Source of the DNA: an uncultured Bacteroidales bacterium
Lineage (GTDB): Bacteria > Bacteroidota > Bacteroidia > Bacteroidales > JAAYJT01
NCBI GenBank assembly: GCA_964349765.1
Contig: CAYGGZ010000002.1
Coordinates: forward strand, 99,151 to 163,150
Direction: 5' to 3'
DNA: 64,000 nucleotides
A model generated the notes under the pieces. It saw nothing but the letters and a program-made list of their open reading frames with translations. It did not search any database and was not told the origin of the DNA. Positions 960 through 17,372 of this stretch are shown piece by piece; within the stretch, counting starts at the first letter, position 1, and every line of letters begins with the position of its first letter. A program made the position numbers and the translations under genes.

Positions 960-1335
960 AATTGAAGTTGGAGCAAAAGGCTACCACGAGATTATTGTGA
1001 GTTATGAAGCCACCGCCGCCCGTTATGGCTCAGGTCTGGTGGAGGTTTTTGCAACCCCTGCCATGATCGCCCTAATGGAATATACATGCCAGTGCAGCAT
1101 TCAGGAAAAGTTACATGAGGGTTATATAACAGTTGGAACAGAAGTAAACGTCAAACACCTTAAAGCAACGCCGATAGGCATGAAAGTTTGGTGCGAATCG
1201 GAGCTATTGGCGGTTGAGGGTCGACAACTTATTTTCAGGGTTGATGCTCACGACGAAAAGGGTAAAATAGGAACAGGCACCCACAAACGGATGATCGTAA
1301 ATTCCAAAAACTTTATGAACCGTATAGGCTCATAA
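949..1335 (+). CDS. Hotdog-fold thioesterase family protein
   Basis: The 128-aa product has ...FATPAMIALMEYTC...GTEVNVKHLKATPIGMKV...GTGTHKRMIV, typical of small hotdog thioesterases. It overlaps the OsmC gene by 11 nt. Confidence 0.7.
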   Translation: MDHKIEVGAKGYHEIIVSYEATAARYGSGLVEVFATPAMIALMEYTCQCSIQEKLHEGYITVGTEVNVKHLKATPIGMKVWCESELLAVEGRQLIFRVDAHDEKGKIGTGTHKRMIVNSKNFMNRIGS

Positions 1336-1349
1336 CATATTATCCCGTA

Positions 1350-3824
1350 ATGCAACCCCAATACGCACAGATTTTGTTGCCTCTGCAACTGCCCACAATG
1401 TATACCTACAGTGTGCCGGAAAGTTTATTTAGTGAGATTCGGGCCGGGCAGCGTGCTGTAGTACAATTTGGTTCTAAAAGGCTTTATGCCGGATTGGTGA
1501 TGCAACTAACAAGCACAGCACCTCCAGGCAACATAAAACAAATCCTCTATCTACTTGATAAAGAATCCGTTGTTAACGATTTCCAGATGCAATTCTGGCA
1601 ATGGATGGCCTCCTACTATCTTTGTACGCCCGGCGAAGTGATGGGTGCCGCCCTTCCTTCAGGCTTAAGGCTTTCGAGCGAAAGCATGGTATCGGTTAAT
1701 CCCGGCTATGATATTTCCGGTGCTATCCTTACCGAACCAGAGCTGAGATTACTGCAATACATTAAAGATAAAGGATCAATCACCATAGCCGAAACTTCAC
1801 GAATACCCGGTATTGAGCGTGCAATCGCCATGGTGCAGTCGTTGTTTACAAGAGGCGCAGTGGAGCTTTCAGAAGAGTTGGCAGAGCGATACAGGCCTAA
1901 AACCTCAAAAATGATCACACTTTCCCAAACCTACCATCAAAACGAACCTGCCCTGAACGCAATTATGGACTACTTAGATAAAAGAGCGCCAAAACAATCT
2001 GAATTATTACAGGTTTTGTTGAATCAATCAATCAGCAACAATCCGCCTGCCATGTCGCGTTCATCCCTCCTAAAAACCACACCCGGAACTGAGGGTGCGT
2101 TGCGTTCGCTAATAAGCAAAGGAATTGTTGATGAGATTGAGGTTATTGTTTCGCGCATTCCTGAAGCAACAGAAAAGTCGCACCCAGATGCTATTGTGCT
2201 AACCCAGGCGCAAGATCAGGCTTACAGTCAGATATTGCAGTGCATGGCAGAACTGAAACCGGTTTTGTTGTTCGGTATCACTTCGAGCGGAAAAACAGAA
2301 ATCTACATCAAACTCATTGCCGAAACCATCCGGCAGGGCAAACAGGTACTCTACCTATTGCCGGAGATTGCCCTTACAAGTCAGATCATCCGCAGGCTTC
2401 AGAATTTTTTCGGCAATCGTGTAGGAGTGTATCATTCCCGTTATGGCGAACCCGAAAGGGTAGAAGTTTGGCAAAAGGTTCTGAATCAGACTTTGGCATC
2501 AGAAACATGCAGCATCATTTTAGGAGCACGTAGCGCTGTTTTTCTTCCTTTTTCCAGTCTTGGGCTCGTCATCGTTGACGAAGAGCACGATAGTAGTTTC
2601 AAACAGCATGACCCCCAACCCCGCTACAATGCCCGTGATGCAGCCGTTTATCTGGCCGCCCAGCACAAAGCTGCTGTTGTGCTTGGATCGGCAACTCCAG
2701 CGCTTGAAAGCTACTTCAATACAGCAACGGGTAAATACAGGCTTGTGGAATTAAAGGAGCGTTACGGCAATGTTCTGCTGCCTGTAGTTGAAACCGCAGA
2801 TTTGAAAGAGGCAACACGTCGAAAAACCATGAAAAGTCACTTCACTCCTGAGCTGATTGCCGCGCTTGAAGAGGCTATTCAAAACAATGAGCAGGCTATA
2901 CTTTTTCAAAACCGGCGTGGATTTTCTCTCCGCATCGAATGCTCCGGCTGTCAATGGATTCCCCATTGTCGTCATTGCGATGTAACCCTAATTTATCACA
3001 AAAGTTCGAACCAATTACGCTGCCATTACTGTGGATATCACGAACCGACTCCTGAAGCCTGTCCTGAGTGCGGAAACACAGCTTTAATTATGATAGGTTT
3101 TGGAACCGAAAGAGTTGAAGAAGATTTGGCGTTACTTTATCCTGATCTTCGGATCGAAAGGTTGGATCTTGACTCCACACGCAGCAAACACTCCTATCAA
3201 CGTATTATCGGCGGTTTTGAGGAACATTCGATTGATGTTCTTACAGGCACCCAAATGGTTACTAAAGGTTTGAACTTTGAACATGTGAGTCTGGTGGGTA
3301 TTTTGAATGCTGATAACATGATTCATTTCCCTGATTTTCGTGCGTTTGAGCGTAGTTTTCAGTTGATGGCCCAGGTAAGTGGCCGCGCTGGGCGCAAGCA
3401 TCGCCGGGGTAAGGTTATTCTGCAGACCCGTAATCCTGAAAATAAGGTGATAAAATGGGTTATAAACACCGACTACGAAGCAATGTATAATTCGCAGATG
3501 GAAGAGCGGCGTCAGTTTGGATATCCTCCTTTCACAAGGCTTGTTCGTATCTCGCTACGCCATAAAGAACAACAACCGCTCGAAGCGGCTTCGGTTGTGC
3601 TTGCCCGTGAATTACGCAGGCTTTTTCCCGGAAAAATCCTTGGCCCCGAATACCCTCTCATCTCACGCATTAAGAACTTGTATATCAAGGACATTTTGAT
3701 AAAGCTTCCCAGGACTGCAGAGTTAATGGAATCGAAACACAAAATCAAAGATATGCTTGATAGATTTGCGGCAAGTCCGGTTTCGAACCGTGTAAAAATT
3801 GCCGTTGATGTTGACCCTGTTTAG
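1350..3824 (+). CDS. priA: Primosomal protein N' (replication restart helicase PriA)
   Basis: The 824-aa product has Walker A GITSSGKTEIY, DEEH, a Cys-rich Zn-finger region (CSGCQWIPHCRHCDVTLIYHKSSNQLRCHYCGYHEPTPEACPECG), and helicase C motifs (TQMVTKGLNF...QVSGRAGR). Confidence 0.95.
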   Translation: MQPQYAQILLPLQLPTMYTYSVPESLFSEIRAGQRAVVQFGSKRLYAGLVMQLTSTAPPGNIKQILYLLDKESVVNDFQMQFWQWMASYYLCTPGEVMGAALPSGLRLSSESMVSVNPGYDISGAILTEPELRLLQYIKDKGSITIAETSRIPGIERAIAMVQSLFTRGAVELSEELAERYRPKTSKMITLSQTYHQNEPALNAIMDYLDKRAPKQSELLQVLLNQSISNNPPAMSRSSLLKTTPGTEGALRSLISKGIVDEIEVIVSRIPEATEKSHPDAIVLTQAQDQAYSQILQCMAELKPVLLFGITSSGKTEIYIKLIAETIRQGKQVLYLLPEIALTSQIIRRLQNFFGNRVGVYHSRYGEPERVEVWQKVLNQTLASETCSIILGARSAVFLPFSSLGLVIVDEEHDSSFKQHDPQPRYNARDAAVYLAAQHKAAVVLGSATPALESYFNTATGKYRLVELKERYGNVLLPVVETADLKEATRRKTMKSHFTPELIAALEEAIQNNEQAILFQNRRGFSLRIECSGCQWIPHCRHCDVTLIYHKSSNQLRCHYCGYHEPTPEACPECGNTALIMIGFGTERVEEDLALLYPDLRIERLDLDSTRSKHSYQRIIGGFEEHSIDVLTGTQMVTKGLNFEHVSLVGILNADNMIHFPDFRAFERSFQLMAQVSGRAGRKHRRGKVILQTRNPENKVIKWVINTDYEAMYNSQMEERRQFGYPPFTRLVRISLRHKEQQPLEAASVVLARELRRLFPGKILGPEYPLISRIKNLYIKDILIKLPRTAELMESKHKIKDMLDRFAASPVSNRVKIAVDVDPV

Positions 3825-3845
3825 GATAATCGCCGTTCGTGAAGG

Positions 3846-5048
3846 TTATACTTTTTCCAATGCAACAGCAATACCTTGACCAACACCGATGCACATTGTA
3901 CACAAGGCTTTGCTAAGGCCTAATTGTTGAAGCTGGTTGATTGCAGTGGTAACGAGCCGTGCTCCGCTCATCCCGAGTGGATGCCCAAGGGCAATAGCAC
4001 CACCCCAACGGTTTACTCTCGGATCGTTGTCGGCAAGGCCAAACTCACGGATACAGGCCAGCGCCTGAGCAGAGAATGCTTCGTTGATCTCTATGACATC
4101 CAGATTATCCAGTGTAAGCTTCAGGCGGTCCAGCAGCTTGTATGTTGCAGGAACCGGCCCCATACCCATGATGCGGGGTTGAACACCTGCAACCGCCATC
4201 CCAAGAAAGCGGGCGGAAGGTGTTAGGTTGTATTTTTTTAGAGCAGCTTCTGAGGCAAGTATCATCGCCGAAGCGCCGTCGTTAACTCCAGAGGCATTGC
4301 CTGCTGTAACTGTGCCATTGTTTCCAACAATCGGTTTCAGTGCGGCGAGCTGCGGAAGCGAGGTGCGGCGAGGGTGTTCATCGGTGTTCACAAATAATGG
4401 TTCGCCCTTTCGTTGTGGAATCTCAACCGAAACAATCTCATTATTAAAATAATTTAACTGTTGCGCTGCAAAGGCTTTTTCCTGACTATGAAACGCAAAG
4501 CTGTCCTGATCCTCACGGTTGATGCCGAAATCGGCTGCAATGTTTTCGGCGGTTTCAATCATTGACTCAGCTCCATATTGCCGTTCGAGGAGCTTATTCA
4601 CAAACCTCCAGCCCATCGTGGTGTCGTACATTTTAATGTTGCGAGAGAATGCTTGTTCGCTTTTATCCAGAACAAACGGAGCCCTCGACATACTTTCTAT
4701 TCCCCCGGCGATAATCAGACCGGCTTCCGCCGATCGAATCGCACGCGCGGCAGTTCCAACGGCATCCATGCCCGAACCACATAGCCTGTTTATTGTAGAG
4801 CCAGGGACAGTTTCAGGTAAACCCGCAAGGAGCAAAGCCATCCGGGCAACATTGCGATTGTCTTCTCCCGCCTGATTAGCGCAGCCCATCAATACATCAT
4901 CTACCATCGTCCAATCAATGCCGGGATTACGTTCTACGAGCGCCCGAAGAACGATTGCAGCTAAATCATCGGTTCGCACCGAAGAAAGCGAGCCTCCATA
5001 CTTTCCAATTGGAGTTCGTACAGCATCGCAGATAAACACTTCATTCAT
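3846..5048 (-). CDS. Acetyl-CoA C-acyltransferase (3-ketoacyl-CoA thiolase)
   Basis: The 400-aa product has the thiolase motifs [11 protein letters not shown] (active-site Cys), [21 protein letters not shown] and CIGVGQGIA. It is the last gene of the minus-strand cluster. Confidence 0.92.
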
Positions 5049-5060
5049 TGCACGAAAATA

Positions 5061-6407
5061 TTAGTTGAACTTATCGAGCATTGGTTTTACATGACGAAAT
5101 CCGCTGAGCATAGCATCGGACAGCATGTCTACCTCTTTTTGTGTTACCATTGTTGAAAACACGCAGGAGCACGAATTTACGATCATCACTCCATTTTCGT
5201 AAAGGTGGTCGATAAAGGCATTAACGATTTTTTTTGTCTGCTCATCTTCATATCCATCGCGATACGACAGCGGAGGCGTTTGGCGGAAATGCACCTTAAA
5301 CAATGACCCCCCTCCGGTGAGGCAAACCGGAACATCGGCTGTTTTAACTGCTTCTTCAATCTGTTTACGAGCCTTTGCAGTTGTTTCGTTGATCTTCAGC
5401 ACTGCCTTGCGATCGAAAAGTTCGAGGGCAACCTTTCCTGCAGCCATTGAAACGGGATTTGCGGAGAAGGTTCCTGAAAGAGGAAACCGGAATTTGGAGC
5501 TTCTCGGATCAAGAACTTCCATCACATCGTTTCGTCCGGCAAAAGCCCCGATAGGAAACCCGCCACCAATTAATTTGCCCATGGAGGTAAGATCAGGTTT
5601 TTGAGGGTAATCCTGCTGTGCGCCTTCGTAGTTTACCCGAAAGCAAATAACCTCGTCGAAGCACAGTAGAACATTGTTTTGGCGGGTCCAATCGAAAACT
5701 GCACTTATAAATTCCTGTGAAGCAGGAATCAAACCAATTCTGTGAGGAACCGGATCGATTAATACACATGCCAGTTCAGATGCATGCCTGTTGAGAATAT
5801 TAATGGTTCGTTCAACATCGTTGAAAGGGAAAATCACTACATCGTTTAAAACGCCCTGCGGTGTGCCATGAACAAGTGGAACGCTTTGGGGCTGGTTTAG
5901 ATCGCCCCAGTTTACGGGAGTAGAAGATTGGCTCACCTCCGCAACATCATAGCTGCCGTGGTATGCTCCTTCGGCCTTAGCTATCTTGGGTTTGCCTGTA
6001 AAAGCACGGGCAGTCTTGATCATAGCCATTACGGCTTCGGTACCGGAATTCACAAAACGTATTTTATCGAATCCTGGAACGCGGTTGCAAAGCAATTTGG
6101 CAAGGTCAATTTCTATTTCCGATGCAAGAGTAAATGCAGTGCCTCTGGAAATTTGTTCGCATGCGGCCGAAACAATTGCCGGGTGAGCGTGTCCGTGAAT
6201 GAGCGATGCGATATTGTTTGCAAAGTCAACACGCTTTACTCCATGAATGTCAGTAACATAACAGCCTTCAGCATGAGAAACGTAATGCGGATGCGGCTTC
6301 CGGAAATGAACGTTGCGGCTGATTCCGCCAGAGAGCACTTTGCATGCTTCGCTGTAAATACTCTCGTCGGTTTTTAGATCGGTTTGTGTTTTATAGTTTG
6401 TTTGCAT
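5061..6407 (-). CDS. Class III (GSAM-like) PLP aminotransferase; candidate beta-amino-acid aminotransferase
   Basis: The 448-aa product has GTEAVMAMIKTAR, AYHGS, FDEVICFRV and the PLP-lysine context MGKLIGGGFPIGAF, as in the glutamate-1-semialdehyde aminomutase-like branch. Only the gene context suggests a beta-amino-acid role. Confidence 0.8.
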   Translation of the reverse strand: MQTNYKTQTDLKTDESIYSEACKVLSGGISRNVHFRKPHPHYVSHAEGCYVTDIHGVKRVDFANNIASLIHGHAHPAIVSAACEQISRGTAFTLASEIEIDLAKLLCNRVPGFDKIRFVNSGTEAVMAMIKTARAFTGKPKIAKAEGAYHGSYDVAEVSQSSTPVNWGDLNQPQSVPLVHGTPQGVLNDVVIFPFNDVERTINILNRHASELACVLIDPVPHRIGLIPASQEFISAVFDWTRQNNVLLCFDEVICFRVNYEGAQQDYPQKPDLTSMGKLIGGGFPIGAFAGRNDVMEVLDPRSSKFRFPLSGTFSANPVSMAAGKVALELFDRKAVLKINETTAKARKQIEEAVKTADVPVCLTGGGSLFKVHFRQTPPLSYRDGYEDEQTKKIVNAFIDHLYENGVMIVNSCSCVFSTMVTQKEVDMLSDAMLSGFRHVKPMLDKFN

Positions 6408-6432: not shown

Positions 6433-7083
6433 CTAATACTGATTTAGTTTCACGGCAGTGCGTTGTTGCAGGAGTTCAAAATTAACACCCGGGGCCAGTT
6501 CACGAACGAAAAGTCCTTTTGATGTAACATCTATTATGGCGTAGTCGGTGTAGATGCGGTCAACTACTTGTTTGCCTGTGAGCGGATAAGTGCATTGCTC
6601 CACTATTTTTGAGTCGCCATTTTTTGTTGTGTGTTGTGTGATCACAAAAATAGTTTTTACTCCTTCAACCAGGTCCATTGCACCTCCCACAGCAGGGATA
6701 GCGCCTGGTTCTCCGGTACTCCAGTTTGCGAGGTCGCCTTTTCCGGAAACCTGAAACGCCCCCAAAACACAAATGTCGATATGTCCGCCGCGAACCATTG
6801 CAAAACTGTCGGCATGATGAAAGAAGCAAGCTCCCTCAATTGCGGTTACGGGTTTTTTACCGGCATTTATCAGTTCGTCGTCTTCCATTCCTGGTTGGGG
6901 CGAAGGACCAACCCCAAGGAGTCCGTTTTCGGTGTGAAAAATTACTTCCCTTCCTTGAGGAATATAATTTGCTACGAGCTCAGGCATTCCAATACCGAGG
7001 TTCACATAGGCGCCGTTGGGAATATCTTCGGCTATTTTCTGAGCCATTTGTTCGCGGGTCCATCCAATATCTTCGGCTTTCAT
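6433..7083 (-). CDS. 3-oxoacid CoA-transferase subunit B
   Basis: The 216-aa product has the ...VIFHTENGLLGVGP... ((S)ENG catalytic Glu motif). It overlaps subunit A by 4 nt. Confidence 0.9.
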   Translation of the reverse strand: MKAEDIGWTREQMAQKIAEDIPNGAYVNLGIGMPELVANYIPQGREVIFHTENGLLGVGPSPQPGMEDDELINAGKKPVTAIEGACFFHHADSFAMVRGGHIDICVLGAFQVSGKGDLANWSTGEPGAIPAVGGAMDLVEGVKTIFVITQHTTKNGDSKIVEQCTYPLTGKQVVDRIYTDYAIIDVTSKGLFVRELAPGVNFELLQQRTAVKLNQY

Positions 7084-7790
7084 GGATACCTCCTCTGCTC
7101 TTTGATTAAAACGTTTTCACTCACCGGATTAGGTACGTGAATAACTTTCTTCACAAAAATTCCCGGAGTAACTACAATCTCAGGATCAATCGTACCGATT
7201 TCAACGATTTCGGAGGCCTGCACAATAGCATTTCTGGCAGCCATGCACATTACAGGGCCAAAGTTTCGGGCAGTTTTGTTGTACAAAAGATTGCCATAGC
7301 GGTCGGCCGTCCTGCATTTTACCAGAGCAAAATCGGAGCGGATTCCATATTCCATTACATTAATCCGGCCGTTAAATTCCCGTGTTTCTTTTCCTTCTGC
7401 AATAGGAGTATTTACCGAGGTAGGAGTGTAAAACGCTGGTATTCCGGCTCCACCCGCACGGATTCTTTCTGCGAGTGTTCCCTGCGGAACTAATTCCAAC
7501 TCAATTTCGCCACGCTTGTAGAGCTCAGGAAACACCACCGAATGTGCAGTGCGTGGAAAAGAACAGATCATCTTCTTAACCTGACGGTTTTCGATCAGCG
7601 CTGCAAGCCCAATATGGCCGTTGCCTGTGTTGTTGCTTACAACTGTCAGATTTTTTGCACCGTGGTCAATCAAGGCATGAATGAGTTCAATCGGGCTGCC
7701 TGCTTCCCCAAACCCGCTGATCATCACTGTAGCGCCGTCGAAAATACCCGCTACGGCTTCAGAAAGGGATGTAACAATTTTATTGATCAT
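7080..7790 (-). CDS. 3-oxoacid CoA-transferase subunit A
   Basis: The 236-aa product has ...ISGFGEAGSPIELIHALIDHGAKNLTVVSNN...VPQGTLAERIRAGGAGIPAFYTPT..., typical of ScoA/AtoD-type subunit A. Confidence 0.9.
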   Translation of the reverse strand: MINKIVTSLSEAVAGIFDGATVMISGFGEAGSPIELIHALIDHGAKNLTVVSNNTGNGHIGLAALIENRQVKKMICSFPRTAHSVVFPELYKRGEIELELVPQGTLAERIRAGGAGIPAFYTPTSVNTPIAEGKETREFNGRINVMEYGIRSDFALVKCRTADRYGNLLYNKTARNFGPVMCMAARNAIVQASEIVEIGTIDPEIVVTPGIFVKKVIHVPNPVSENVLIKEQRRYP

Positions 7791-7809: not shown

Positions 7810-9387
7810 TTACTTCCTGCGTCCGGTTTCTATTGATTGATGCAGATTGTGTTCTATTTCAGCGAGTTCATCTTCGAAGAAATGTTTATCTGCGCCATAA
7901 GGTTTCAGATTGGTGATAGTATTTTCGTACTCATCATATTTGGCAAGATATACTTTATCCATCCATTCGATATTTCTGCCCTGATTGAATTTGAGCGCAA
8001 AGAGCTTCTCCCCGTTTAGCTCAACCTCGCCAAGCAATGAAATTTTTCCGGCTGAGGAGGTTTGTGTAATATATCTCGATGGACGGTTGATACTCGGGAG
8101 CGAACGGTATATCTTCGAGAAAATCTTGTTGATTGCTGTTACCGGTTGGTTAAAGTAGTGGAACTCTCCGGTAGGCCGAGCCAGATACATTGAATGAAAA
8201 CCAACTCCCAGCATTGCAAAAACATTGGCAAGATCGATCCAGTTCTGTGCTGAGCGGTCAATGTCCACCTCGCCATTTTCCTTCTGGAAAAGACTGATAT
8301 GGTTCATTATGGGGCTTTGACTCTTTATTGTTGCGCCGTGAGCTCTCAGCCGTCTGATGGCAGCAATGGTACTAATGTTCAGCACCTCTCTTGGGGTCGA
8401 AAAATGCGACATGAATACAAGCTGAATCCCGTTGTCGTAAAGTCTCTGAAAATGGCCAAGCATCTCGTTATACTCGGGTGTGATGATCATTTCCGGATTG
8501 TATGTAAGAATCCTTGTTCCAAGGCGGATGGTTTTGATGTGATTAAGCTCAGGGTCTTCGATGATTGGTGTGATATATTCATTAAAGCGCCCTGCACTCA
8601 GATAGCCTGCATCGCCTCCTGTGATAAGCACATCGGTAACCTCCTTATGCTGTTTAAGATACACATGTATCTGGTGAACATCTTTTTGGATAAACATATC
8701 ATCGTCGCCACGAACCTGTGCGTGACGGAAACAGTAGTTGCAAAAGGCAAAACAATTCTGCGTTTCAAAATCAAAAATCAGTTTGCATTGCGGATATTTA
8801 TGCTGGCTGCCTTCAATAACCTCAATTGCACCGTCTTCATTAACAAAGGTAGGCTTGTTTAATTGCTGTTTGCCATCATGTGGATTGGTTTCGCGGATAT
8901 AATCTTTCACAATTTTTTCACGTTCATGATCGCTGCCAGCAAGCAGATAGGCTTTTTCCACATCGGCTCTTATCATGCCGGGCTGTGGAAAAACGAGTTG
9001 AAACACAGAGTCCTTCTCAAAGTTAGCCCAGTTTATAGTATCTAACACATGCTTTGTAGCCATAAAGCGATACACCTTGATAAAAAGCTCCCGCTCTTCG
9101 ATATGTCCGATGTTTATTCCATGATCGGCCAATACCTTAACAATCTCTCTAAAGCCTTTCATTCCGGAATAGTGTTTCTTGTCGACAAACAGAAATTCGG
9201 CATCCTCCCTGATTCCTGAATGCTGCGGATAAGCTGCATCAAGCCGGCTTAAAACTCCTTCAGGAAGCAGATTTTCGCTGCGGATGATAGCTTTTGTGCC
9301 TTCAGAATAGTGAAACCGGTGCATCATTTCATCTACAGCAACTTTGTTAATAAGCACATTGCTTCCGGTAGTCAATTTGTGGTTCAT
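7810..9387 (-). CDS. KamA-family radical SAM protein (amino acid 2,3-aminomutase-like), atypically long
   Basis: The 525-aa product has SQHKYPQCKLIFDFETQNCFAFCNYCFRHAQ (CxxxCxxC at 8731-8754), DVLITGGDAG, and a C-terminal ...TSSAGKISL Lys where KamA has its PLP-lysine (GGGGK). Extensions of about 190 aa (N-terminal) and 60 aa (C-terminal) have no family I can assign. Confidence 0.8.
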   Translation of the reverse strand: MNHKLTTGSNVLINKVAVDEMMHRFHYSEGTKAIIRSENLLPEGVLSRLDAAYPQHSGIREDAEFLFVDKKHYSGMKGFREIVKVLADHGINIGHIEERELFIKVYRFMATKHVLDTINWANFEKDSVFQLVFPQPGMIRADVEKAYLLAGSDHEREKIVKDYIRETNPHDGKQQLNKPTFVNEDGAIEVIEGSQHKYPQCKLIFDFETQNCFAFCNYCFRHAQVRGDDDMFIQKDVHQIHVYLKQHKEVTDVLITGGDAGYLSAGRFNEYITPIIEDPELNHIKTIRLGTRILTYNPEMIITPEYNEMLGHFQRLYDNGIQLVFMSHFSTPREVLNISTIAAIRRLRAHGATIKSQSPIMNHISLFQKENGEVDIDRSAQNWIDLANVFAMLGVGFHSMYLARPTGEFHYFNQPVTAINKIFSKIYRSLPSINRPSRYITQTSSAGKISLLGEVELNGEKLFALKFNQGRNIEWMDKVYLAKYDEYENTITNLKPYGADKHFFEDELAEIEHNLHQSIETGRRK

Positions 9388-9564: not shown

Positions 9565-10344
9565 TCAGAATTTTATCTCAAAATCATCGGCATCCCTCCA
9601 AACCGGGAATTTTTCGCGGAAGGCAAAAAGTGCATCTGTATCCAGTTCGGCAGTGATTATTTCCTCGTTTTCATTTTCTGCGGCACGCATTATTTCGCCT
9701 TTCATATCGCAAACCATAGTATCGCCGGTGTATGTTATACCATTTTCGTCCGACCCGATTCGGTTCACGGCACAAACATAACACTGATTCTCAATGGCTC
9801 GGGCCATGAGAAGTTTAATCCAAACCTGTCTTCGTGCCGACGGCCAATTGGCAACAATGAAAATTGCATCATAATCGTTGCGGTTGCGCAGCCACACAGG
9901 AAATCGAAGGTCGTAGCAGATTGCAAGCAAAATGCGCAACCCTTTGTATTCCACCACAACACGTCGCTTTCCAGAAGCATAAGCTCCGCTGTCGCGTTCA
10001 AGAAAAAAAAGGTGACGTTTGTCGTAGTACGACAACTTGCCTTCGGGTGTAGCCCAGACAAAACGATTAAAGGTTCCAGCCAGATCCTTGATTATCAAAC
10101 TCCCCCCTAATGCCATTCCTGTTTCGGCAGAAATGCGTTTCATCCAATCCACCGAAGTCCCATCCATAGTTTGAGCCCATTGAGATGAGTTCATAGTGAA
10201 ACCCGTAGAGAACATCTCAGGCAGAAGAACAGCATCGCTCCGACCGTTAAGGCCTTTGATCTTTTTTTCAATGTAATCAAGGTTGGCAACAGGGTTTTCC
10301 CACACCAGGCCTACCTGTAGAAGTGATATCCTAAAAACACTCAT
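9565..10344 (-). CDS. Carbon-nitrogen hydrolase family amidohydrolase (YafV/omega-amidase-like)
   Basis: The 259-aa product has ...AVLLPEMFSTGF... (catalytic Glu), ...YDKRHLF... (Lys) and ...ILLAICYDLRFP... (Cys), the nitrilase-superfamily E-K-C triad contexts. Confidence 0.85.
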   Translation of the reverse strand: MSVFRISLLQVGLVWENPVANLDYIEKKIKGLNGRSDAVLLPEMFSTGFTMNSSQWAQTMDGTSVDWMKRISAETGMALGGSLIIKDLAGTFNRFVWATPEGKLSYYDKRHLFFLERDSGAYASGKRRVVVEYKGLRILLAICYDLRFPVWLRNRNDYDAIFIVANWPSARRQVWIKLLMARAIENQCYVCAVNRIGSDENGITYTGDTMVCDMKGEIMRAAENENEEIITAELDTDALFAFREKFPVWRDADDFEIKF

Positions 10345-11774
10345 GATTTTTGATTTACTGATTTAAATTTACTCCAGTAGTTTCCAACTATTATTGAAAT
10401 AATAGCCACGATAACACCTGCAAAGGTTTTGTCAATATCGTACCAGCCCTTCTCTGCGGCCAGAATGCTCAACCCAATTGCCACGGTACCAGCAGTGAAC
10501 GACAGTGAAACAGCCTCTTTTGAAATCCAATTACGATAGTATAACCCCATCAAAATCACTATTGCACCAATCGCCCTGATCGAATAGGAAACGTAGGCGG
10601 CATCGAGTATTGCGCCGTGTAAAAACACTGCAAGCGGCACAGTGATCAAGTTAACGATAACAACGAATCTGCGTGCAGTGATAACCAATTCCTTATCAGT
10701 CGCCCCTTTTCGCAACACTCCATTATAAATATCTTTTGTAATGATTGTAACAACAGCAAAGTTTACCGGCCCTACGGTTGATAGAATGGCAGCAAGGATG
10801 CCAGCCAGCGCAATGCCCCCAAGTATTGGATGGATAAACAATGGCTCTGTCATCAACGTAGGTAACACCATCTTAGGGTTTACGGTAATCGGATCAATAA
10901 ATAATCCCGTTTTAGCGATCAGCCCCAGGAGGGCAACCATCACACCGAATGGAGCGATTATAAAAGCCGACAATATTGCTGCTTTACGAGCCGTGGCGGC
11001 GTTGCGTGCAGCAAATATCGGTTGGATACTTGCTTGTCCAGCCATTCCACCAAGAACTCCCCCTAATATCAAGCTTGCAGCGTTGCTAATTCCTGCGCTA
11101 AACGGATTATACAGATTCTCCGGCGAACCATTTGCAATAAGAATAGCTGCAAGATTTCCAAATCCATTAACTTTTTCGATCCCCACAAATAGTGCTGTTC
11201 CCAATCCCAAAAACATAACAGCCAGATGAATAATTCCTGTAATAGCAAGAGCATGCATCCCACCTATGTAAGTGTAAGCCGTAATAATCAGTGAAGCCAG
11301 AATGACCGCGGTGATCCAGTCAACACCAAAGAGCGGAACCATAACAGCAGCAAAGGTTTGTAATTGCACATAACCAAGTGTGATATAGGCAATTGTAAAG
11401 GCAACTGCCGACCAGAACTTTGCTTTACTACCAAACATAGAATCAAGCATCTCACTTACGGTGTAAACGTTCCGTTCGCGGTATTGTCGGGCAACAGTAA
11501 AGCCAATGATTACCATACCGATTGCAGTTGAAATATTGTAGAGAACAGGTTGCAAGGTGCCTGTGGTAAAAGCAGTTTCACTCACACCAATTGTGCTCAG
11601 CCCTCCTAACCATTCGGCTGCCACTACTATTGCACATACAACAAGACCAAGATTTCTTCCAGCAACCAGATAATCGGCTGCAGAGCGTGTGGCCAGCCTG
11701 CGGATTAGAAATGACACTGCAGCCACAAGAATGAAATAGGCAATAACAACAATCAGGTAAATACTCATAATCAA
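10341..11774 (-). CDS. Sodium:solute symporter (SSS) family transporter
   Basis: The 477-aa polytopic membrane protein starts ...YLVAGRNLGLVVCAIVVAAEWLGG..., typical of SSS N-termini. Its stop overlaps the hydrolase start by 4 nt. Confidence 0.85.
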   Translation of the reverse strand: MIMSIYLIVVIAYFILVAAVSFLIRRLATRSAADYLVAGRNLGLVVCAIVVAAEWLGGLSTIGVSETAFTTGTLQPVLYNISTAIGMVIIGFTVARQYRERNVYTVSEMLDSMFGSKAKFWSAVAFTIAYITLGYVQLQTFAAVMVPLFGVDWITAVILASLIITAYTYIGGMHALAITGIIHLAVMFLGLGTALFVGIEKVNGFGNLAAILIANGSPENLYNPFSAGISNAASLILGGVLGGMAGQASIQPIFAARNAATARKAAILSAFIIAPFGVMVALLGLIAKTGLFIDPITVNPKMVLPTLMTEPLFIHPILGGIALAGILAAILSTVGPVNFAVVTIITKDIYNGVLRKGATDKELVITARRFVVIVNLITVPLAVFLHGAILDAAYVSYSIRAIGAIVILMGLYYRNWISKEAVSLSFTAGTVAIGLSILAAEKGWYDIDKTFAGVIVAIISIIVGNYWSKFKSVNQKS

Positions 11775-12008: not shown

Positions 12009-12016
12009 TATCTTTG
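12009..12016 (+). promoter_or_regulatory. Candidate -7 promoter motif TAtcTTTG upstream of trkA
   Basis: This matches the TAnnTTTG consensus 25 nt upstream of ATG 12041. A TTTG at 11984-11987 sits at -33-like spacing. Confidence 0.45.
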
Positions 12017-12040
12017 CGCCCATTTATTGGAACATCGGCA

Positions 12041-13381
12041 ATGAAAATTATTATAGCAGGCGACGGAGAGGTTGGCTTTCACCTTGCAAAGTTACTTTCG
12101 AACGACCGGCACAGTATTACAGTGGTTGATCCCTGCCATGAGTTGATAAAGATGATTGAGTCTAATACTGACCTGTTTGCTATAACAGGCGATTCAACTT
12201 CTATTTCGGTTCTTAACCAGGCAGGTGTTGCGAATACCGACTTATTGATGGCAGTTGTTCACAATGAGCAGGTAAACATAGTTACATGTGCCTTAGGCAA
12301 GAAGCTCGGCGCAAAGCGCACCATAGCCAGAATTAGCAATCCCGAATATCTGACTCATAAAAATTCAGAAGTTTTAAGAACTCTCGGAATAGATATTCTG
12401 GTTTGTGCTGAAAAAATTGCATCTGAAGAAATCGTAAGACTCCTGCAACAGCCGGGTGCTACAGAAATCTTCGATTTTTCCGACGGCAAGCTGATGCTAT
12501 TTATGGTAAAACTCGACAACAAATCGCTGGTTATTGGCAAATCTCTCCATGATATTTCCAAGGAGAACCCAAATCTCGAATTCAGGGCAGTTGCTATGCA
12601 CCGCGATGGAAAAACAATCATCCCCAGAGGCGACGACCGCTTCAAAGAAGGAGATATGGCATACGTGGTTACACGCCCCTCAGGTATTAACGAACTCCTG
12701 CGCTATAGTGGTAAACAAAAATACGATATCGTCAATGTAATGGTTATCGGGGGCGGAGATATTGGAAAAGAAACCGCTCTGCGGTTAGAAAACACCTACA
12801 ATGTCAAGATTATAGAACCTGACAAGGAGCGCTGTATAGCCCTTTCCGATATTCTGCACAACACACTTATAATCAACGGCGACACTCGCAATATTGAACT
12901 CCTTGAGTACGAAGGCCTGCGGCAAATGGACGCCTTCATCGCTGTTACTGACGACACCGAAGATAACATATTCAGTTGCCTGCTGGCAAAAAGACAAGGA
13001 GTAAAGAAAGTTATTGCACTCGTTGAAAACATTGATTTTATTGACATTGCTCAAAGTATTGGTATCGAGTGCATTATCAATAAAAAACTGGTAACTGCAA
13101 GCTACATTGTGAAACACACAATGCAAACACCGGTAAATGCAATTAAACTCCTCAGCGGTATTGATGCTGATGTTGTGGAATTTGTTACTCAAAAAGGATC
13201 TCGTATTACCAAAGGGCCTATCAAGAAAGTGAAAACCCCACAGGGCAGCGTCATTGGTGGAATTATTCGCGGAAACGAAGGGATAATAGCTACTGGCGAT
13301 GTGCAAATCATGGAAGGCGATAAGGTGGTAGTTTTCTCAATGCCCGAGGCCTTGGAAAAAGTTTCGGAGTATTTTCGTTAA
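12041..13381 (+). CDS. trkA: Trk potassium uptake system NAD-binding protein TrkA
   Basis: MKIIIAGDGEVGFHLAKLL... and a second Rossmann fold (VMVIGGGDIGKETA) give two RCK/TrkA-N + TrkA-C repeats. I prefer ATG 12041 over the TTG at 12014 used in the ORF track. Confidence 0.9.
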   Translation: MKIIIAGDGEVGFHLAKLLSNDRHSITVVDPCHELIKMIESNTDLFAITGDSTSISVLNQAGVANTDLLMAVVHNEQVNIVTCALGKKLGAKRTIARISNPEYLTHKNSEVLRTLGIDILVCAEKIASEEIVRLLQQPGATEIFDFSDGKLMLFMVKLDNKSLVIGKSLHDISKENPNLEFRAVAMHRDGKTIIPRGDDRFKEGDMAYVVTRPSGINELLRYSGKQKYDIVNVMVIGGGDIGKETALRLENTYNVKIIEPDKERCIALSDILHNTLIINGDTRNIELLEYEGLRQMDAFIAVTDDTEDNIFSCLLAKRQGVKKVIALVENIDFIDIAQSIGIECIINKKLVTASYIVKHTMQTPVNAIKLLSGIDADVVEFVTQKGSRITKGPIKKVKTPQGSVIGGIIRGNEGIIATGDVQIMEGDKVVVFSMPEALEKVSEYFR

Positions 13382-13420
13382 AAAGTACCTTAGCATACCA
13401 CTACTCCAGTATATGTTATA

Positions 13421-14884
13421 ATGCCATCTACTTCAAAAATACACCTCAGGCTTATAATTAAAATTCTTGGGATCTTTCTCATGATTTTAGGTGTGTTGAT
13501 GCTGACATCTCTTATATTCGCCTATCTGTATGATGATGGTAACGCGGCAAGCATCCTTCTCTCTGGTAGCATCACAATTTCGTGCGGCTTGCTGTTGTTT
13601 ATTTTCACTAAAAACGCCGACCTTCAGGAAGTTAGTAAACGCGACGGTTTTGTGATCGTTAGCGCTACATGGATTGTAATTTCTCTGTTCGGAACGCTTC
13701 CATTTATCCTATCCGGAGCAGTTGATAACTTTACTGATGCATTCTTCGAAACGATGTCGGGTTTTACTACGACCGGTGCTACAATCCTACCCGATATTGA
13801 AGCGGTTGATAAAAGTATCCTCTATTGGCGTAGCCTTACACAATGGATCGGAGGCATGGGAATAATAGTGTTATCATTGGCCATTTTACCGATATTAGGC
13901 ATTGGAGGCATGCAGCTTTTTATTGCAGAGGTTCCAGGCCCAACAAAGGAAAAACTCCATCCGCGCGTAACCGAAACAGCTAAATTTCTTTGGGGAATTT
14001 ATGTTTTACTTACGGCAATACAAACATTACTCCTCGTGGCTGGCGGAATGAGTTTTTTTGAAGCACTGTGCCATGCATTCACTACGATGTCAACCGGAGG
14101 TTTCTCGACTCAGAACGAAAGCATTGCCGCATTTTCTCCTTATATTCAATATGTTACTATTTTCTTCATGTTCCTTGCAGGAACCAGCTTTGTTGTGCTT
14201 TACTATATTATGCACCTGAGGATAAAAAAAGTATTCGGCAGCGAAGAGTTTCGGACATATTTCCTCATAATCGTAGCAGCAGCGCTTTTCATCACTGTTT
14301 CATTGGTTCTGACCTCTGATTTAAAGTTCGGCCGGGCTTTTCGTGATGCATTGTTTCAAACCGTTTCAATTATTACTACTACAGGCTTTATTACAGCCGA
14401 TTATTTGCAATGGAGCCCGTTTTTATGGTTTCTCGTTTTTCTGCTTATGTTTACGGGAGGCTGCGCCGGGTCAACTGGTGGCGGTATTAAGATTGTTCGC
14501 CAGCTACTACTTTTTAAAAACAGCCGTCTCGAAATGCGCCGGATCATTCATCCCCAGGCAATTGTCCCTGTCCGACTGAATGGAAAAGCCATCCCTGAAA
14601 CAATCATTTATAATGTGCTTGCATTTTTCATCATCTATATACTCATCTTTGTTTTTGCCTCCCTGTTCATGTCGTTTCTGGGATTGGATTTTGAAACTGC
14701 AGTAGGCTCCGTGGCAGCCTCAATCGGAAATATCGGCCCTGGGATCGGCAAAGTTGGGCCTATTCACAACTACGACTTTATTCCTGATGCCGGAAAATGG
14801 ATGTTAGGCCTTGTAATGTTATTGGGAAGACTTGAATTGTTTACCGTACTCGTTTTGTTTTCATTCAACTTTTGGAAAAAGTAA
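13421..14884 (+). CDS. trkH: TrkH-family potassium transporter (copy 1)
   Basis: The 487-aa polytopic protein has FFETMSGFTTTGATIL, WIGGMGIIV, STGGFST and GGCAGSTGGGIK selectivity-filter-like repeats. Confidence 0.9.
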   Translation: MPSTSKIHLRLIIKILGIFLMILGVLMLTSLIFAYLYDDGNAASILLSGSITISCGLLLFIFTKNADLQEVSKRDGFVIVSATWIVISLFGTLPFILSGAVDNFTDAFFETMSGFTTTGATILPDIEAVDKSILYWRSLTQWIGGMGIIVLSLAILPILGIGGMQLFIAEVPGPTKEKLHPRVTETAKFLWGIYVLLTAIQTLLLVAGGMSFFEALCHAFTTMSTGGFSTQNESIAAFSPYIQYVTIFFMFLAGTSFVVLYYIMHLRIKKVFGSEEFRTYFLIIVAAALFITVSLVLTSDLKFGRAFRDALFQTVSIITTTGFITADYLQWSPFLWFLVFLLMFTGGCAGSTGGGIKIVRQLLLFKNSRLEMRRIIHPQAIVPVRLNGKAIPETIIYNVLAFFIIYILIFVFASLFMSFLGLDFETAVGSVAASIGNIGPGIGKVGPIHNYDFIPDAGKWMLGLVMLLGRLELFTVLVLFSFNFWKK

Positions 14885-16344
14885 GAGTGCATTCTGTGAT
14901 CAATTACCAGATCGTCCTGAAAGTAACAAGCTTACTTATCGTTATTATTGCATTGTTTATTTTCGCATGCCTGCCAGTATCATTACTCACAGGCGGTGAC
15001 GATTTTATTTCCCTTGCCATCTCAGCATTCATAACAGCAGCCATCGGAGGAACAATATGGATGCTAACCGGCAAATTCAATTCCAATGCTATTGGCAAAA
15101 AAGAGGCGTATCTGATTGTGGTCGTTACCTGGCTGAGCATGGTTTTTTTTGGCAGTTTACCATACTTAATCAGCGGTACGATACCAAATCTTACCGACGC
15201 ATTCTTTGAATCCATGTCGGGATTTACTACAACCGGCGCCTCAATATTAACCGACATCGAAGCCGTGTCTGAGGGAATTTTATTCTGGAGAAGCCTCACT
15301 CACTGGATCGGAGGAATGGGAATCATTGTTTTTTCAGTGGCCATATTGTCGCTTTTCGGCATCGGAGGAATACAGCTTTTTCTGGCCGAAGTGCCCGGTC
15401 CGTCAAAAGAAAAGCTTCACCCTCGAATCAAACAAACAGCCCTTCGACTATGGGGCATATATGTACTTTTAACCCTGATGCAAACACTACTGCTTGTTGC
15501 GGGCAATATGACACTCTACGATGCTGTTACTCATTCATTTTCTACAATTTCTACAGGAGGGTTCTCAACCCGCAACGCAAGTATGGGGGCGTTTTCTGCC
15601 TATGCCCAATATGTTACAATCGTTTTCATGATTTTATCAGGCACAAACTTTACTCTTCATTACTTGCTGTTGAACCGGCGTTGGAAGCAGGTAATCGCCG
15701 ACGAGGAGCTAAGGATGTACCTTGGAATAATCATAATCTCTACATTGGTAATCGCTCTCTTTCTCGTTCATAATGGATATGGAACAACCGAAAAATCATT
15801 CCGTGATGCACTGTTCCAGGTAACTACAATCATGACATGTACCGGATTCGCAACCGCCGATTTCATGCAATGGCCAGTATTCTGCTGGTTTTTACTTTTT
15901 TTGTTAATGCTGGTTGGAGGTTGTGCCGGAAGCACCGCTGGAGGAATTAAGGTGATACGGCATCTGTTGCTTCTGAAAGGCCTCAGGAACGAATTCAGGG
16001 GGCTGATGCACCCTTCCGCATACCTGCCGCTACAGTACAATGGTCATACGGTTGGAGAAAACATACACAGAAACATTCTGGCAATTTTCATACTTTATTT
16101 GCTCACTTTTACCATCGGTTCATTTCTTTTGACACTCAGCGGCCTCGACCATATTACAGCCATGGGTTCAGTGGCTCAGGCAATGGGAAATATCGGGGTT
16201 GGGCTGGCAGCAACAGGCCCTGCTTCTAACTTTGCGGAGATAAGTGTGGCAGCGAAATGGACCCTGTCATGTCTGATGTTGATCGGAAGATTAGAAATAT
16301 TAACCGTTTTTGTGCTCTTTAGTAAAGCCTTTTATAAAAAATAA
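14872..16344 (+). CDS. trkH: TrkH-family potassium transporter (copy 2, tandem paralog)
   Basis: The 490-aa product carries the same motif set (FFESMSGFTTTGASIL, WIGGMGIIV, STGGFST, GGCAGSTAGGIK). The start is uncertain: TTG 14872 overlaps the copy-1 stop, and GTG 14887 is an alternative. Confidence 0.88.
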   Translation: MEKVRVHSVINYQIVLKVTSLLIVIIALFIFACLPVSLLTGGDDFISLAISAFITAAIGGTIWMLTGKFNSNAIGKKEAYLIVVVTWLSMVFFGSLPYLISGTIPNLTDAFFESMSGFTTTGASILTDIEAVSEGILFWRSLTHWIGGMGIIVFSVAILSLFGIGGIQLFLAEVPGPSKEKLHPRIKQTALRLWGIYVLLTLMQTLLLVAGNMTLYDAVTHSFSTISTGGFSTRNASMGAFSAYAQYVTIVFMILSGTNFTLHYLLLNRRWKQVIADEELRMYLGIIIISTLVIALFLVHNGYGTTEKSFRDALFQVTTIMTCTGFATADFMQWPVFCWFLLFLLMLVGGCAGSTAGGIKVIRHLLLLKGLRNEFRGLMHPSAYLPLQYNGHTVGENIHRNILAIFILYLLTFTIGSFLLTLSGLDHITAMGSVAQAMGNIGVGLAATGPASNFAEISVAAKWTLSCLMLIGRLEILTVFVLFSKAFYKK

Positions 16345-16442: not shown

Positions 16443-17372
16443 TTATCGTACTACTACCACCCTTGCCGTTAGCTTTTGCTTCCCCAGTAGTACTTCGAGA
16501 ATAAAAATACCCGGCGGAAGCGAAATTACATCCAATTCAAATCTTTCCACACCACCAGGAACATTTTTACTGATCAACTCCCTACCCGTTAGCGAAAGTA
16601 ATCTTAATAAAGCGCTTTCCTGTGTAACTGAAGGAAAAACGACGGTTAGCCCCGAGCTGGCCGGGTTCGGAAAGATTGTCAGCAAACCTTTATCGTTTTC
16701 ACCAATGCTGGTCACTCCATAATAATAACAATCAGGAAACTGCGGGCTGTGGTAAATTAATGCCGATTGATGGCTGAAGCAAGATAGTGTTAATGCATCC
16801 GGAAACTCCTGATTAAATAGTTTGGCCGTTATTGGAAACAATGGTCCATGAACGCTGCCAATGCCTTCAATCCAGGTTTCTTTCATACTCGTGTTGTAAT
16901 AAACCACAGGCGAAAAATTAAACCGACGGCGGTACTGCCCGTCTATCACCACACTGTCAATTGATTGAAGAAAAAGATCGTAGTGTGCTCCACAACAAAA
17001 CTGATAAAACTTCACCGTGTCGCCCGGTTGTATATTGAAATCATACATCACCGTTGGGTGAATCTGGCCATCGCTCATGAAATAAACAACTCCATTAGCT
17101 GCGTACACATGCCCCCTGAAGATGTTCGACGGATCGCCAGGTACAAACACCGAAGTATTGTTCTCATAAATTCTGCTCCACAACTGATTATCAATCAATG
17201 TATCGCCATCGTATGAATAGGTCCAGGTTACCAGACCAGAACCAGGGGGATTGCCCGGCAGCGGGTACTCCTGCACAACCATCCAATTAGCATCCGACAC
17301 AGGAAAAGCTATCCCCTGAGCTACAGAAGCCACACCATGAAGCGTAAATAAGAATGAAAATATGATTCTCAT
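16443..17372 (-). CDS. Secreted protein with T9SS (Por) C-terminal sorting domain
   Basis: There is an N-terminal signal peptide (MRIIFSFLFTLHGVASVAQG). The C-terminus ...LTIFPNPASSGLTVVF...LLSLTGRELIS...LPPGIFILEVLL...VVVVR matches the type A T9SS CTD pattern. Confidence 0.8.
   Translation of the reverse strand: MRIIFSFLFTLHGVASVAQGIAFPVSDANWMVVQEYPLPGNPPGSGLVTWTYSYDGDTLIDNQLWSRIYENNTSVFVPGDPSNIFRGHVYAANGVVYFMSDGQIHPTVMYDFNIQPGDTVKFYQFCCGAHYDLFLQSIDSVVIDGQYRRRFNFSPVVYYNTSMKETWIEGIGSVHGPLFPITAKLFNQEFPDALTLSCFSHQSALIYHSPQFPDCYYYGVTSIGENDKGLLTIFPNPASSGLTVVFPSVTQESALLRLLSLTGRELISKNVPGGVERFELDVISLPPGIFILEVLLGKQKLTARVVVVR

Follow-up and report, generated by a model that had tools for sequence, protein, structure and literature searches.

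A stretch of 64,000 nucleotides (nt) from an uncultured Bacteroidales bacterium (assembly GCA_964349765.1, contig CAYGGZ010000002.1, positions 99,151 to 163,150 of the forward strand), referred to at this full length as the window, carries an operon of five genes headed by a distant relative of KamA, the lysine 2,3-aminomutase of Clostridium subterminale. This first gene (7810..9387, minus strand) begins with an ATG codon and encodes a protein of 525 amino acids, which is predicted to be an L-2-aminoadipate 2,3-aminomutase. The gene context and two residues of the presumed substrate pocket point to L-2-aminoadipate as the most likely substrate, and we consider this assignment probable. Somewhat more cautiously, we lean towards the view that the family is the founding L-2-aminoadipate 2,3-aminomutase of an undescribed lysine/2-aminoadipate route that runs through 3-aminoadipate, in hundreds of uncultured anaerobic species belonging to many phyla.

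The five-gene operon and its enzymes

The operon is read from one strand in the order KamA-like gene, CoA-transferase subunit A, CoA-transferase subunit B, class-III aminotransferase and thiolase, with intergenic gaps of 19, -4, 25 and 12 nt. A motif scan revealed two TAnnTTTG boxes on the minus strand, TAATTTTG at 9542-9535 and TAACTTTG at 9486-9479, which lie 155 and 99 nt 5' of the start codon. Both resemble the -7 promoter element of Bacteroidota, and the two upstream candidates suggest that the operon has its own promoter.

Neighbourhoods were counted in the best 80 loci from species-representative genomes, all of them metagenome-assembled genomes. Downstream of the KamA-like gene, subunit A is present in 79 and subunit B in 78 of these loci, the aminotransferase in 75 and the thiolase in 63. 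Missing partners mostly coincide with contig ends, and an adjacent thiolase is absent in two loci; wherever the DNA is present, the gene order is constant. The same order is seen in loci assigned to Bacteroidota, Ignavibacteriota, Edwardsbacteria, Cloacimonadota, Desulfuromonadales/Deltaproteobacteria, Gammaproteobacteria and Sumerlaeia, and in an Elusimicrobia locus as far as its short contig extends. When the 1,126 neighbouring open reading frames were clustered, every other gene proved to be confined to at most 15 loci out of the 80, and only lineage-specific housekeeping synteny was seen. The operon is thus a self-contained five-gene unit, in which the KamA-like aminomutase very probably feeds the transaminase, the CoA-transferase and the thiolase. 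This setting is different from that of KamA, which occurs together with KamDE, Kdd and Kce. Some loci, roughly 10 out of the 80 (L072, L082, L087, L102 and others), encode directly upstream on the same strand a protein of about 184 residues with an XRE-type helix-turn-helix and a cupin domain, and it is a candidate for a small-molecule-sensing regulator of the operon.

Among the partner enzymes, the thiolase (3846..5048, minus strand) is assigned as a 3-oxoadipyl-CoA thiolase of the PcaF/PaaJ type, with scores above the curated cutoffs of both NF006551 (680.4 versus 605 bits) and TIGR02430 (656.8 versus 597 bits), and its orthologue in Geopsychrobacter scores even 718.8 and 699.8 bits on the same two models. 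The two transferase subunits likewise exceed their cutoffs. Subunit A (7080..7790, minus strand) is of the succinyl-CoA-dependent PcaI/ScoA type of 3-oxoacid CoA-transferases (TIGR02429, 346.7 versus 128.5 bits) and subunit B (6433..7083, minus strand) of the PcaJ/ScoB type (TIGR02428, 302.2 versus 243.55 bits), although the PcaIJ/ScoAB subfamily cutoffs do not separate 3-oxoadipate from acetoacetate enzymes. The best matches of the transferase in the PDB are succinyl-CoA:3-ketoacid CoA-transferases, at 222 bits for subunit A against 161 bits for an acetate CoA-transferase. The least complicated scheme that connects a 2,3-aminomutase with its partners in the operon converts an alpha-amino acid to a beta-amino acid, this to a 3-oxoacid and then to a 3-oxoacyl-CoA, which is finally thiolysed. 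The PcaF/PcaIJ pair implies 3-oxoadipate as the 3-oxoacid, and the amino acid from which it is formed would therefore be 2-aminoadipate. In the classical pathway 3-oxoadipate arises from aerobic cleavage of aromatic rings, whereas here it is proposed to arise from an amino acid, in anaerobes; aromatic-pathway genes were not found near the operon.

The aminotransferase (5061..6407, minus strand; PF00202) belongs to the HemL-like/beta-transaminase group of class III and is predicted to be a 3-aminoadipate:2-oxoacid transaminase. It stays under the hemL cutoff (337 versus 527 bits). Its best PDB match, 6K8H (354 bits), is an omega-transaminase from Sphaerobacter that acts on free beta- and gamma-amino acids (PMC10589169), and this match is followed by ForI, GSA aminomutases and beta-transaminases.

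The main alternative to 2-aminoadipate is the beta-glutamate route, in which the KamA-like protein would be a glutamate 2,3-aminomutase. Glutamate would then be converted to beta-glutamate and further to 3-oxoglutarate, which after activation and thiolysis would yield malonyl-CoA and acetyl-CoA or would lose CO2 to form acetoacetate, from which the CoA-transferase and the thiolase would make two molecules of acetyl-CoA. So abundant a substrate would account for the fact that the operon usually occurs without feeder genes, and the transferase family also takes in acetoacetate:succinyl-CoA transferases. Furthermore, ForI presumably acts on the C3 keto group of a glutarate-derived skeleton. The thiolase fits this route poorly, since its best PDB match is the Pseudomonas PcaF (6PCA) with 569 bits, compared to about 310 bits for acetoacetyl-CoA thiolases, and we know of no 3-oxoglutaryl-CoA thiolase. 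The KamA-like protein itself reaches only 67.1 bits on the glutamate 2,3-aminomutase model TIGR04368, where the cutoff is 650. All in all, the glutamate route appears unlikely.

An aminotransferase of class III that is HemL-like and adjoins a thiolase is also part of the module that Perret et al. 2011 described for alternative lysine fermentation, which combines AtoAD and an acetoacetyl-CoA thiolase with Kat, an enzyme that acts on 3-aminobutyryl-CoA (PMC3149608). The operon could be imagined to be this module, with the KamA-like protein as an accessory or as the lysine aminomutase of the pathway. There is a likeness in that Kat converts a beta-amino into a 3-oxo compound and is encoded in uncultured digester bacteria, namely in Cloacimonadota as well as in a Bacteroidetes genome from a digester (PMC3149608), and Cloacimonadota also carry the KamA-like operon. 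However, Kat uses a CoA-thioester and works downstream of KamA, KamDE, Kdd and Kce, none of which is part of the KamA-like operon. For comparison, an authentic Kat was recovered with the published primer from a metagenome contig (L092, ERZ1026800 NODE-556), where Kat and its neighbouring thiolase occupy positions 1170-3985 and a CTP synthase gene follows Kat. This Kat has 414 amino acids and agrees with the primers at its two ends, and it can serve as a reference for telling Kat and the operon aminotransferase apart. The identity between the two is only 27%, while the Kat subgroups share about 65% identity with each other. Likewise, the Kat-adjacent thiolase is only 42% identical to the operon thiolase, and the termini encoded by the AtoA and AtoD primers mismatch the CoA-transferase subunits, in the window as well as in the Cloacimonadota loci. 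At the sequence level these values rule out that the operon is the Kat module, and this reading must be regarded as highly improbable.

Catalytic motifs and the substrate pocket

Residues were mapped in a MAFFT L-INS-i alignment of KamA and the KamA-like family, bridged by 41 intermediate sequences from an exhaustive search of representatives, with a KamA reference that is identical to 2A5H over 416 of 416 residues. Conservation within the family was judged from 75 homologues of 504 to 573 amino acids, which align with the window protein over its full length at 63 to 80% identity. The first-pass annotation had recognized a radical-SAM (S-adenosylmethionine) core and a late lysine at the position of the pyridoxal 5'-phosphate (PLP) lysine of KamA, and both are borne out by translation and alignment. 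The CxxxCxxC cluster, CFAFCNYC at residues 212-219 (8731..8754, minus strand), places C212, C216 and C219 opposite C125, C129 and C132 of KamA. It is followed by DVLITGGD at residues 252-259 (8611..8634, minus strand) with the SAM-binding GGD, in which T256-G257-G258-D259 corresponds to S169-G170-G171-D172. The SSAGK loop (8044..8058, minus strand) aligns with GGGGK of KamA and brings the predicted PLP-binding Lys448 opposite Lys337; this column holds lysine in all six family members aligned and in 40 of 41 sequences of a broader clade. Furthermore, Arg134, Arg198 and His230 of KamA are matched by Arg221 (8725..8727, minus strand), R288 and H328. Every matched residue is invariant among the 75 sequences, including the PLP lysine and the SAM motifs, of which the absence would have spoken against the assignment; the sole exception is T441, a position at which the family members displayed have either Thr or Ser. 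It is most likely, judging from these motifs, that the enzyme shares the radical-SAM/PLP mechanism of a 1,2-amino shift with KamA.

Two of the differences from KamA concern functional residues. In the first place, Asp293 and Asp330, which reportedly hold the epsilon-ammonium group of lysine, are replaced by Arg404 (8176..8178, minus strand; invariant) and Thr441 (8065..8067, minus strand). The register at Arg404 is supported by gap-free alignment between the anchors YY and HYF/EHF, as seen when YYIYQCDLSLGLEHF of KamA is set beside YYMFVARDTGARHYF of the intermediates and HSMYLARPTGEFHYF of the window protein. The two replacements would suit an anionic rather than a cationic side chain, and the reversal of charge leads to the prediction that Arg404 binds the distal carboxylate. 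Arg134 of KamA, the counterpart of Arg221, is assumed to bind the alpha-carboxylate of the substrate. In the second place, the zinc ligands of KamA (C268, C375, C377 and C380) are missing from the family and the broader clade: position 268 corresponds to Ser379, and the three C-terminal cysteine columns are gaps.

Glutamate 2,3-aminomutase (Eam) offers a parallel, as this member of the KamA family likewise takes an acidic amino acid as its substrate and is said to have Lys and Asn at the positions of Asp293 and Asp330, that is, a cationic and a neutral residue in place of the lysine-binding aspartates. The charge reversal therefore also speaks for glutamate as a substrate. The proteins differ at these positions, where the window protein has Arg and Thr and Eam has Lys and Asn, as well as in length and in their N-termini, and the gene context would here point to a C6 instead of a C5 substrate.

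For a variant lysine 2,3-aminomutase the pocket is unfavourable, as both aspartates are replaced. In such a case beta-lysine would be formed, followed either by epsilon-deamination to 3-aminoadipate through the neighbouring dehydrogenases or by transamination and thiolysis to 4-aminobutyryl-CoA and acetyl-CoA. Many family members have been labelled lysine 2,3-aminomutase by JGI, KamA is the closest solved structure, and genes of lysine catabolism adjoin the operon in Cloacimonadota and Geopsychrobacter. On the other hand, the match to TIGR03820, the model for lysine 2,3-aminomutase, amounts to 67.6 bits versus a cutoff of 525.4, an epsilon-deaminating enzyme does not occur near most operons, and a PcaF-type thiolase expects a succinyl moiety. 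Lysine itself is thus a very improbable substrate.

Fold, length and family of the KamA-like protein

An AlphaFold2 model built on the alignment of 75 sequences has a mean predicted local distance difference test score (pLDDT) of 87.9 and a predicted template modelling score (pTM) of 0.90. In this model the protein has the KamA-type fold, a partial TIM barrel with N- and C-terminal domains. Its best PDB match in a Foldseek search is KamA itself (2A5H; the E-values of its chains A and B range from 4e-13 to 7e-14), with a template modelling (TM) score of 0.65-0.67 when normalised to KamA and 17% identity over about 425 aligned columns, while other radical-SAM structures appear only at E>=3.5e-4. 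A phmmer comparison with 2A5H (E=4.6e-12) and hhalign (probability 98.2%) agree with this, the sequence profiles aligning with KamA over residues ~189-418 only. The similarity to KamA is far beyond chance, though weak. It remains below all curated limits: in addition to the two aminomutase models mentioned above, the KamA-family model TIGR00238 gives 75.1 bits over residues 180-365 only, versus a cutoff of 199.2, and in Pfam a Radical_SAM match below threshold (16.6 versus 29.5 bits) is accompanied by no other KamA-related domain in the window protein. Because it falls below the curated cutoffs and has neither the aspartates that bind lysine nor the zinc site, the protein is placed within the KamA superfamily as a new family, for which a new substrate is predicted. 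As judged by its sequence, the gene belongs to a distinct, unnamed family.

The unusual length of the protein, to which the first-pass annotation drew attention, is located at its N-terminus and in the core. There are 211 residues before the cysteine cluster versus 124 in KamA, and 236 versus 212 between the cluster and the PLP lysine, which amounts to a core insertion of about 24 residues. A C-terminal extension, which had also been proposed, does not exist, as 77 residues follow Lys448 and 79 follow Lys337 in KamA; the C-terminal region is, however, unrelated in sequence to that of KamA and lacks the zinc cysteines. Columns of the 75-homologue alignment are conserved from about residue 24 and densely from residue 38, the first ~20-35 residues being variable. 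A mis-called start, with an internal Met as the true one, was considered as the source of the length and is ruled out: the N-terminus is conserved across the 75 homologues and the length is therefore no start-codon artefact. The long N-terminus is evidently translated and under selection.

Of the N-terminal ~190 residues that had seemed unrecognisable, only the first ~95 are peculiar to the family, as residues ~95-190 are common to a broader clade of KamA-like proteins. Residues 1-95 (9103..9387, minus strand) form a mostly helical, family-specific domain, of which residues ~1-20 are variable. It is modelled with a pLDDT of 89-98 inside the full-length protein, and residues 1-112 modelled alone are again helical with a pLDDT of 76. 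No Pfam or NCBIfam domain was found in this part, and a Foldseek search with residues 1-112 returned no fold match in the PDB at E<=10. Two candidate identities were rejected. A duplicate of the N-terminus of KamA has an hhalign probability of 0.2%, and an ACT domain is indicated by only 18.9 bits versus a Pfam cutoff of 27, over 22 residues in a region that is helical. Among representatives at 50% identity, residues 1-95 are covered over their full length only by P0121 and P0124, other relatives matching from about residue 95; P0124 (608 amino acids, 40% identity), a singleton without an operon or available flanking DNA, is the sole relative outside the family that has the domain. The idea that the N-terminal region determines the choice of substrate finds no backing, since the pocket differences (D293 to R404 and D330 to T441) are situated in the core. 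A role in oligomerisation is conceivable, because the inter-subunit zinc site of KamA is absent, and the ~95-residue domain may take the place of this zinc-mediated subunit contact.

The divergence of the family, which stays under every curated cutoff, and its N-terminal domain without assigned function might also indicate a different chemistry or a neutral substrate, for example leucine, which would be converted through beta-leucine and beta-ketoisocaproate to isobutyryl-CoA and acetyl-CoA. However, none of the cofactor residues of the aminomutases is missing, which argues against another chemistry, and a neutral substrate would be a misfit with the invariant Arg404 and with a thiolase and transferase of the dicarboxylate type. 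Taken together with a pathway running in reverse, towards 2-aminoadipate or a beta-amino acid (see below), these options seem rather unlikely, a little more so than glutamate.

The sequence of the window protein (P0001) occurs identically on at least five public contigs. More than 1,300 homologues were retrieved in a homologue search, and 441 species-representative genomes carry one; the carriers are nearly all uncultured anaerobes. Among the best 80 loci, the Bacteroidales are represented by Lentimicrobiaceae, Rikenellaceae, Salinivirgaceae and Prolixibacteraceae, and other lineages are Ignavibacteria/Melioribacteraceae, Edwardsbacteria, Cloacimonadota, Elusimicrobia, Balneolales, Saprospirales and Deltaproteobacteria. 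A cultured organism, Geopsychrobacter electrodiphilus, carries a member that is 59% identical to the window protein (WP_020677008.1). Such proteins are called hypothetical protein by NCBI/RefSeq, as is the case for WP_020677008.1, and lysine 2,3-aminomutase by JGI.

The family is surrounded by a broader, unnamed clade of KamA-like proteins of 400-470 amino acids (for example P0129, P0132 and P0136), all below the curated cutoffs. These share 27-38% identity with the window protein over query residues ~95-505, have in most cases an Arg at the position of Asp293 and possess, like the window protein, a C-terminal beta-domain without zinc cysteines, but they lack the N-terminal ~95-residue domain. 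Fusions exist in this broader clade, such as P0150 (882 amino acids) and P0227 (756 amino acids). The N-terminus of P0150 is a flavin N-monooxygenase domain, similar to histamine N-monooxygenase (259 bits), which hints at possible roles in natural-product or siderophore chemistry.

Neighbouring genes and the proposed pathway

A link with lysine is provided by the genes upstream of the operon in some lineages. In two Cloacimonadota loci (L070 and L086) a saccharopine dehydrogenase (Sacchrp_dh_NADP and Sacchrp_dh_C) and a homologue of lysine-ketoglutarate reductase (LKR; 271 bits to the LKR domain of human AASS) are encoded directly upstream. In Geopsychrobacter (L097) the region immediately upstream contains a gene for an L-piperideine-6-carboxylate/aminoadipate-semialdehyde dehydrogenase (NF050084, 797 versus 730 bits; ALDH7A1, 520 bits) and one for a 362-residue protein of the saccharopine dehydrogenase family, of which the best PDB match is 3ABI, presumably a lysine 6-dehydrogenase. 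Three further genes of the saccharopine dehydrogenase family, a LysR regulator, an amino-acid permease and an L-2-hydroxyglutarate oxidase are found nearby. A related deltaproteobacterial metagenome-assembled genome (L101) keeps both genes: the piperideine-6-carboxylate dehydrogenase is directly upstream of the KamA-like gene, whereas in L097 it is one gene further up, and the gene of the saccharopine dehydrogenase family sits after the thiolase. The upstream neighbours in L070, L086 and L097 are thus predicted to make 2-aminoadipate from lysine. As the product of piperideine-6-carboxylate dehydrogenase is 2-aminoadipate, its presence upstream in L101 and L097 also disfavours glutamate.

Several points weigh against 2-aminoadipate as the substrate. 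A tblastn search for lysine-to-aminoadipate genes gave no hits in the window, nor any in the Bacteroidales loci; within 10 kb of the operon, a gene that yields 2-aminoadipate is lacking in the organism of the window and in most Bacteroidales loci, and the supporting neighbourhoods come from two independent lineages only. Lysine-ketoglutarate reductase and saccharopine dehydrogenase also release glutamate, so that a glutamate substrate is compatible with their adjacency and even gains some support from it. Moreover, hhalign sets Asp293 opposite A403, one residue off the bridged MAFFT register that gives R404, and as Arg is much longer than Asp, it could be equally suited to a shorter acidic substrate.

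A last point of this kind comes from the window itself. Directly upstream of its operon are genes for a YafV-like omega-amidase (NF007757, 284 versus 249 bits) and a sodium:solute symporter (together 9565-11774, minus strand, with a 4-nt overlap); among the 80 other loci, tblastn detects the amidase next to the operon in 4 and the symporter in 8. The pair may represent an importer and a transaminase partner that clears 2-oxoglutaramate, or may be unrelated. The amidase might, however, hint at a glutamine-driven amination, which could pull the pathway in the reverse direction. Against such a reversal, the neighbours in three loci are catabolic.

Two other lineages have genes of interest beside the operon. 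In one Bacteroidales lineage an HGLS protein (PF07063, 2-oxoadipate dioxygenase/decarboxylase; 270 amino acids, 102.7 bits) is encoded three to four genes downstream (L051, L052, L056, L065 and L083), and this recurrence adds a weak connection with the metabolism of C6 dicarboxylates. In Edwardsbacteria (L007-L009, 15748-21563) the genes after the operon encode a protein like homoisocitrate/isopropylmalate dehydrogenase, a 744-residue fusion of a 3-hydroxy-3-methylglutaryl-CoA (HMG-CoA) lyase and a family-III CoA-transferase (the transferase part being closest to succinate-glutarate CoA-transferase), a protein of 229 amino acids and hacA-family aconitase subunits. This set may belong to homocitrate or to leucine chemistry, and it may make or consume 2-oxoadipate. 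In the window, the operon is flanked upstream by a TrkA/TrkH/TrkH potassium-uptake set (12014-16344, plus strand), and the gene of the PriA helicase (1350-3824, plus strand) is convergent with that of the thiolase. Further on, a protein with a type IX secretion system (T9SS) tail at 16443-17372 is consistent with the Bacteroidota origin, and between 24001 and 26000 the GC content dips to 0.374, with an AT skew of +0.16, versus a window average of about 0.44.

With 2-aminoadipate as the preferred substrate, a complete pathway can be proposed, of which the substrate, the reaction order and the direction are inferred; what the analysis shows directly is the fold, the motifs, the family, the conservation of the operon and the identities of its neighbours. 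By homology with KamA, the [4Fe-4S] cluster on C212, C216 and C219 would reductively cleave SAM held by G257-G258-D259, and the resulting 5'-deoxyadenosyl radical would take the C3 hydrogen from the substrate. The latter would form an external aldimine with PLP, the resting position of PLP being on Lys448, with Arg221 holding the alpha-carboxylate and Arg404, together with Thr441, the distal carboxylate. By way of an azacyclopropylcarbinyl radical, the amino group would then leave C2 and arrive at C3. The beta-transaminase-like enzyme would convert the resulting 3-aminoadipate to 3-oxoadipate, the PcaIJ-type transferase would form 3-oxoadipyl-CoA at the expense of succinyl-CoA, and the PcaF-type thiolase would split it into succinyl-CoA and acetyl-CoA, by which the CoA donor is regenerated. 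In sum, 2-aminoadipate, a 2-oxoacid and CoA would yield succinate, acetyl-CoA and an amino acid. As a lower branch of lysine catabolism, this route would be redox-neutral, would bypass 2-oxoadipate dehydrogenase and glutaryl-CoA dehydrogenase and would suit fermenting anaerobes. To our knowledge, curated pathway collections list no such aminomutase or pathway. A full-text literature search yielded neither a 2-aminoadipate aminomutase nor a catabolic route via 3-aminoadipate; most subscription journals were outside its coverage and a recent description is possible. The route through 3-aminoadipate thus appears to be undescribed.

If this proposal is true, a function would be given to a family of more than 1,300 members that is hypothetical in RefSeq and mislabelled as lysine 2,3-aminomutase by JGI, and an acidic C6 amino acid would join lysine, glutamate and arginine in the small set of substrates of radical-SAM/PLP aminomutases. 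The cultured member from Geopsychrobacter electrodiphilus makes the hypothesis directly testable. 3-Aminoadipate and the aminomutase would also be of practical interest for bio-based adipate and for routes to beta-amino acids. On the side of metabolism, PcaIJ/PcaF-type enzymes would be at work outside aromatic catabolism, and amino-acid fermentation would be joined to the lower part of the beta-ketoadipate pathway, with 3-aminoadipate as a real metabolite. Metabolic reconstructions of Bacteroidales from digesters, sediments and the gut, of Cloacimonadota and of Ignavibacteria would have to be corrected, and these anaerobes would be able to finish the degradation of lysine without 2-oxoadipate dehydrogenase or glutaryl-CoA dehydrogenase.

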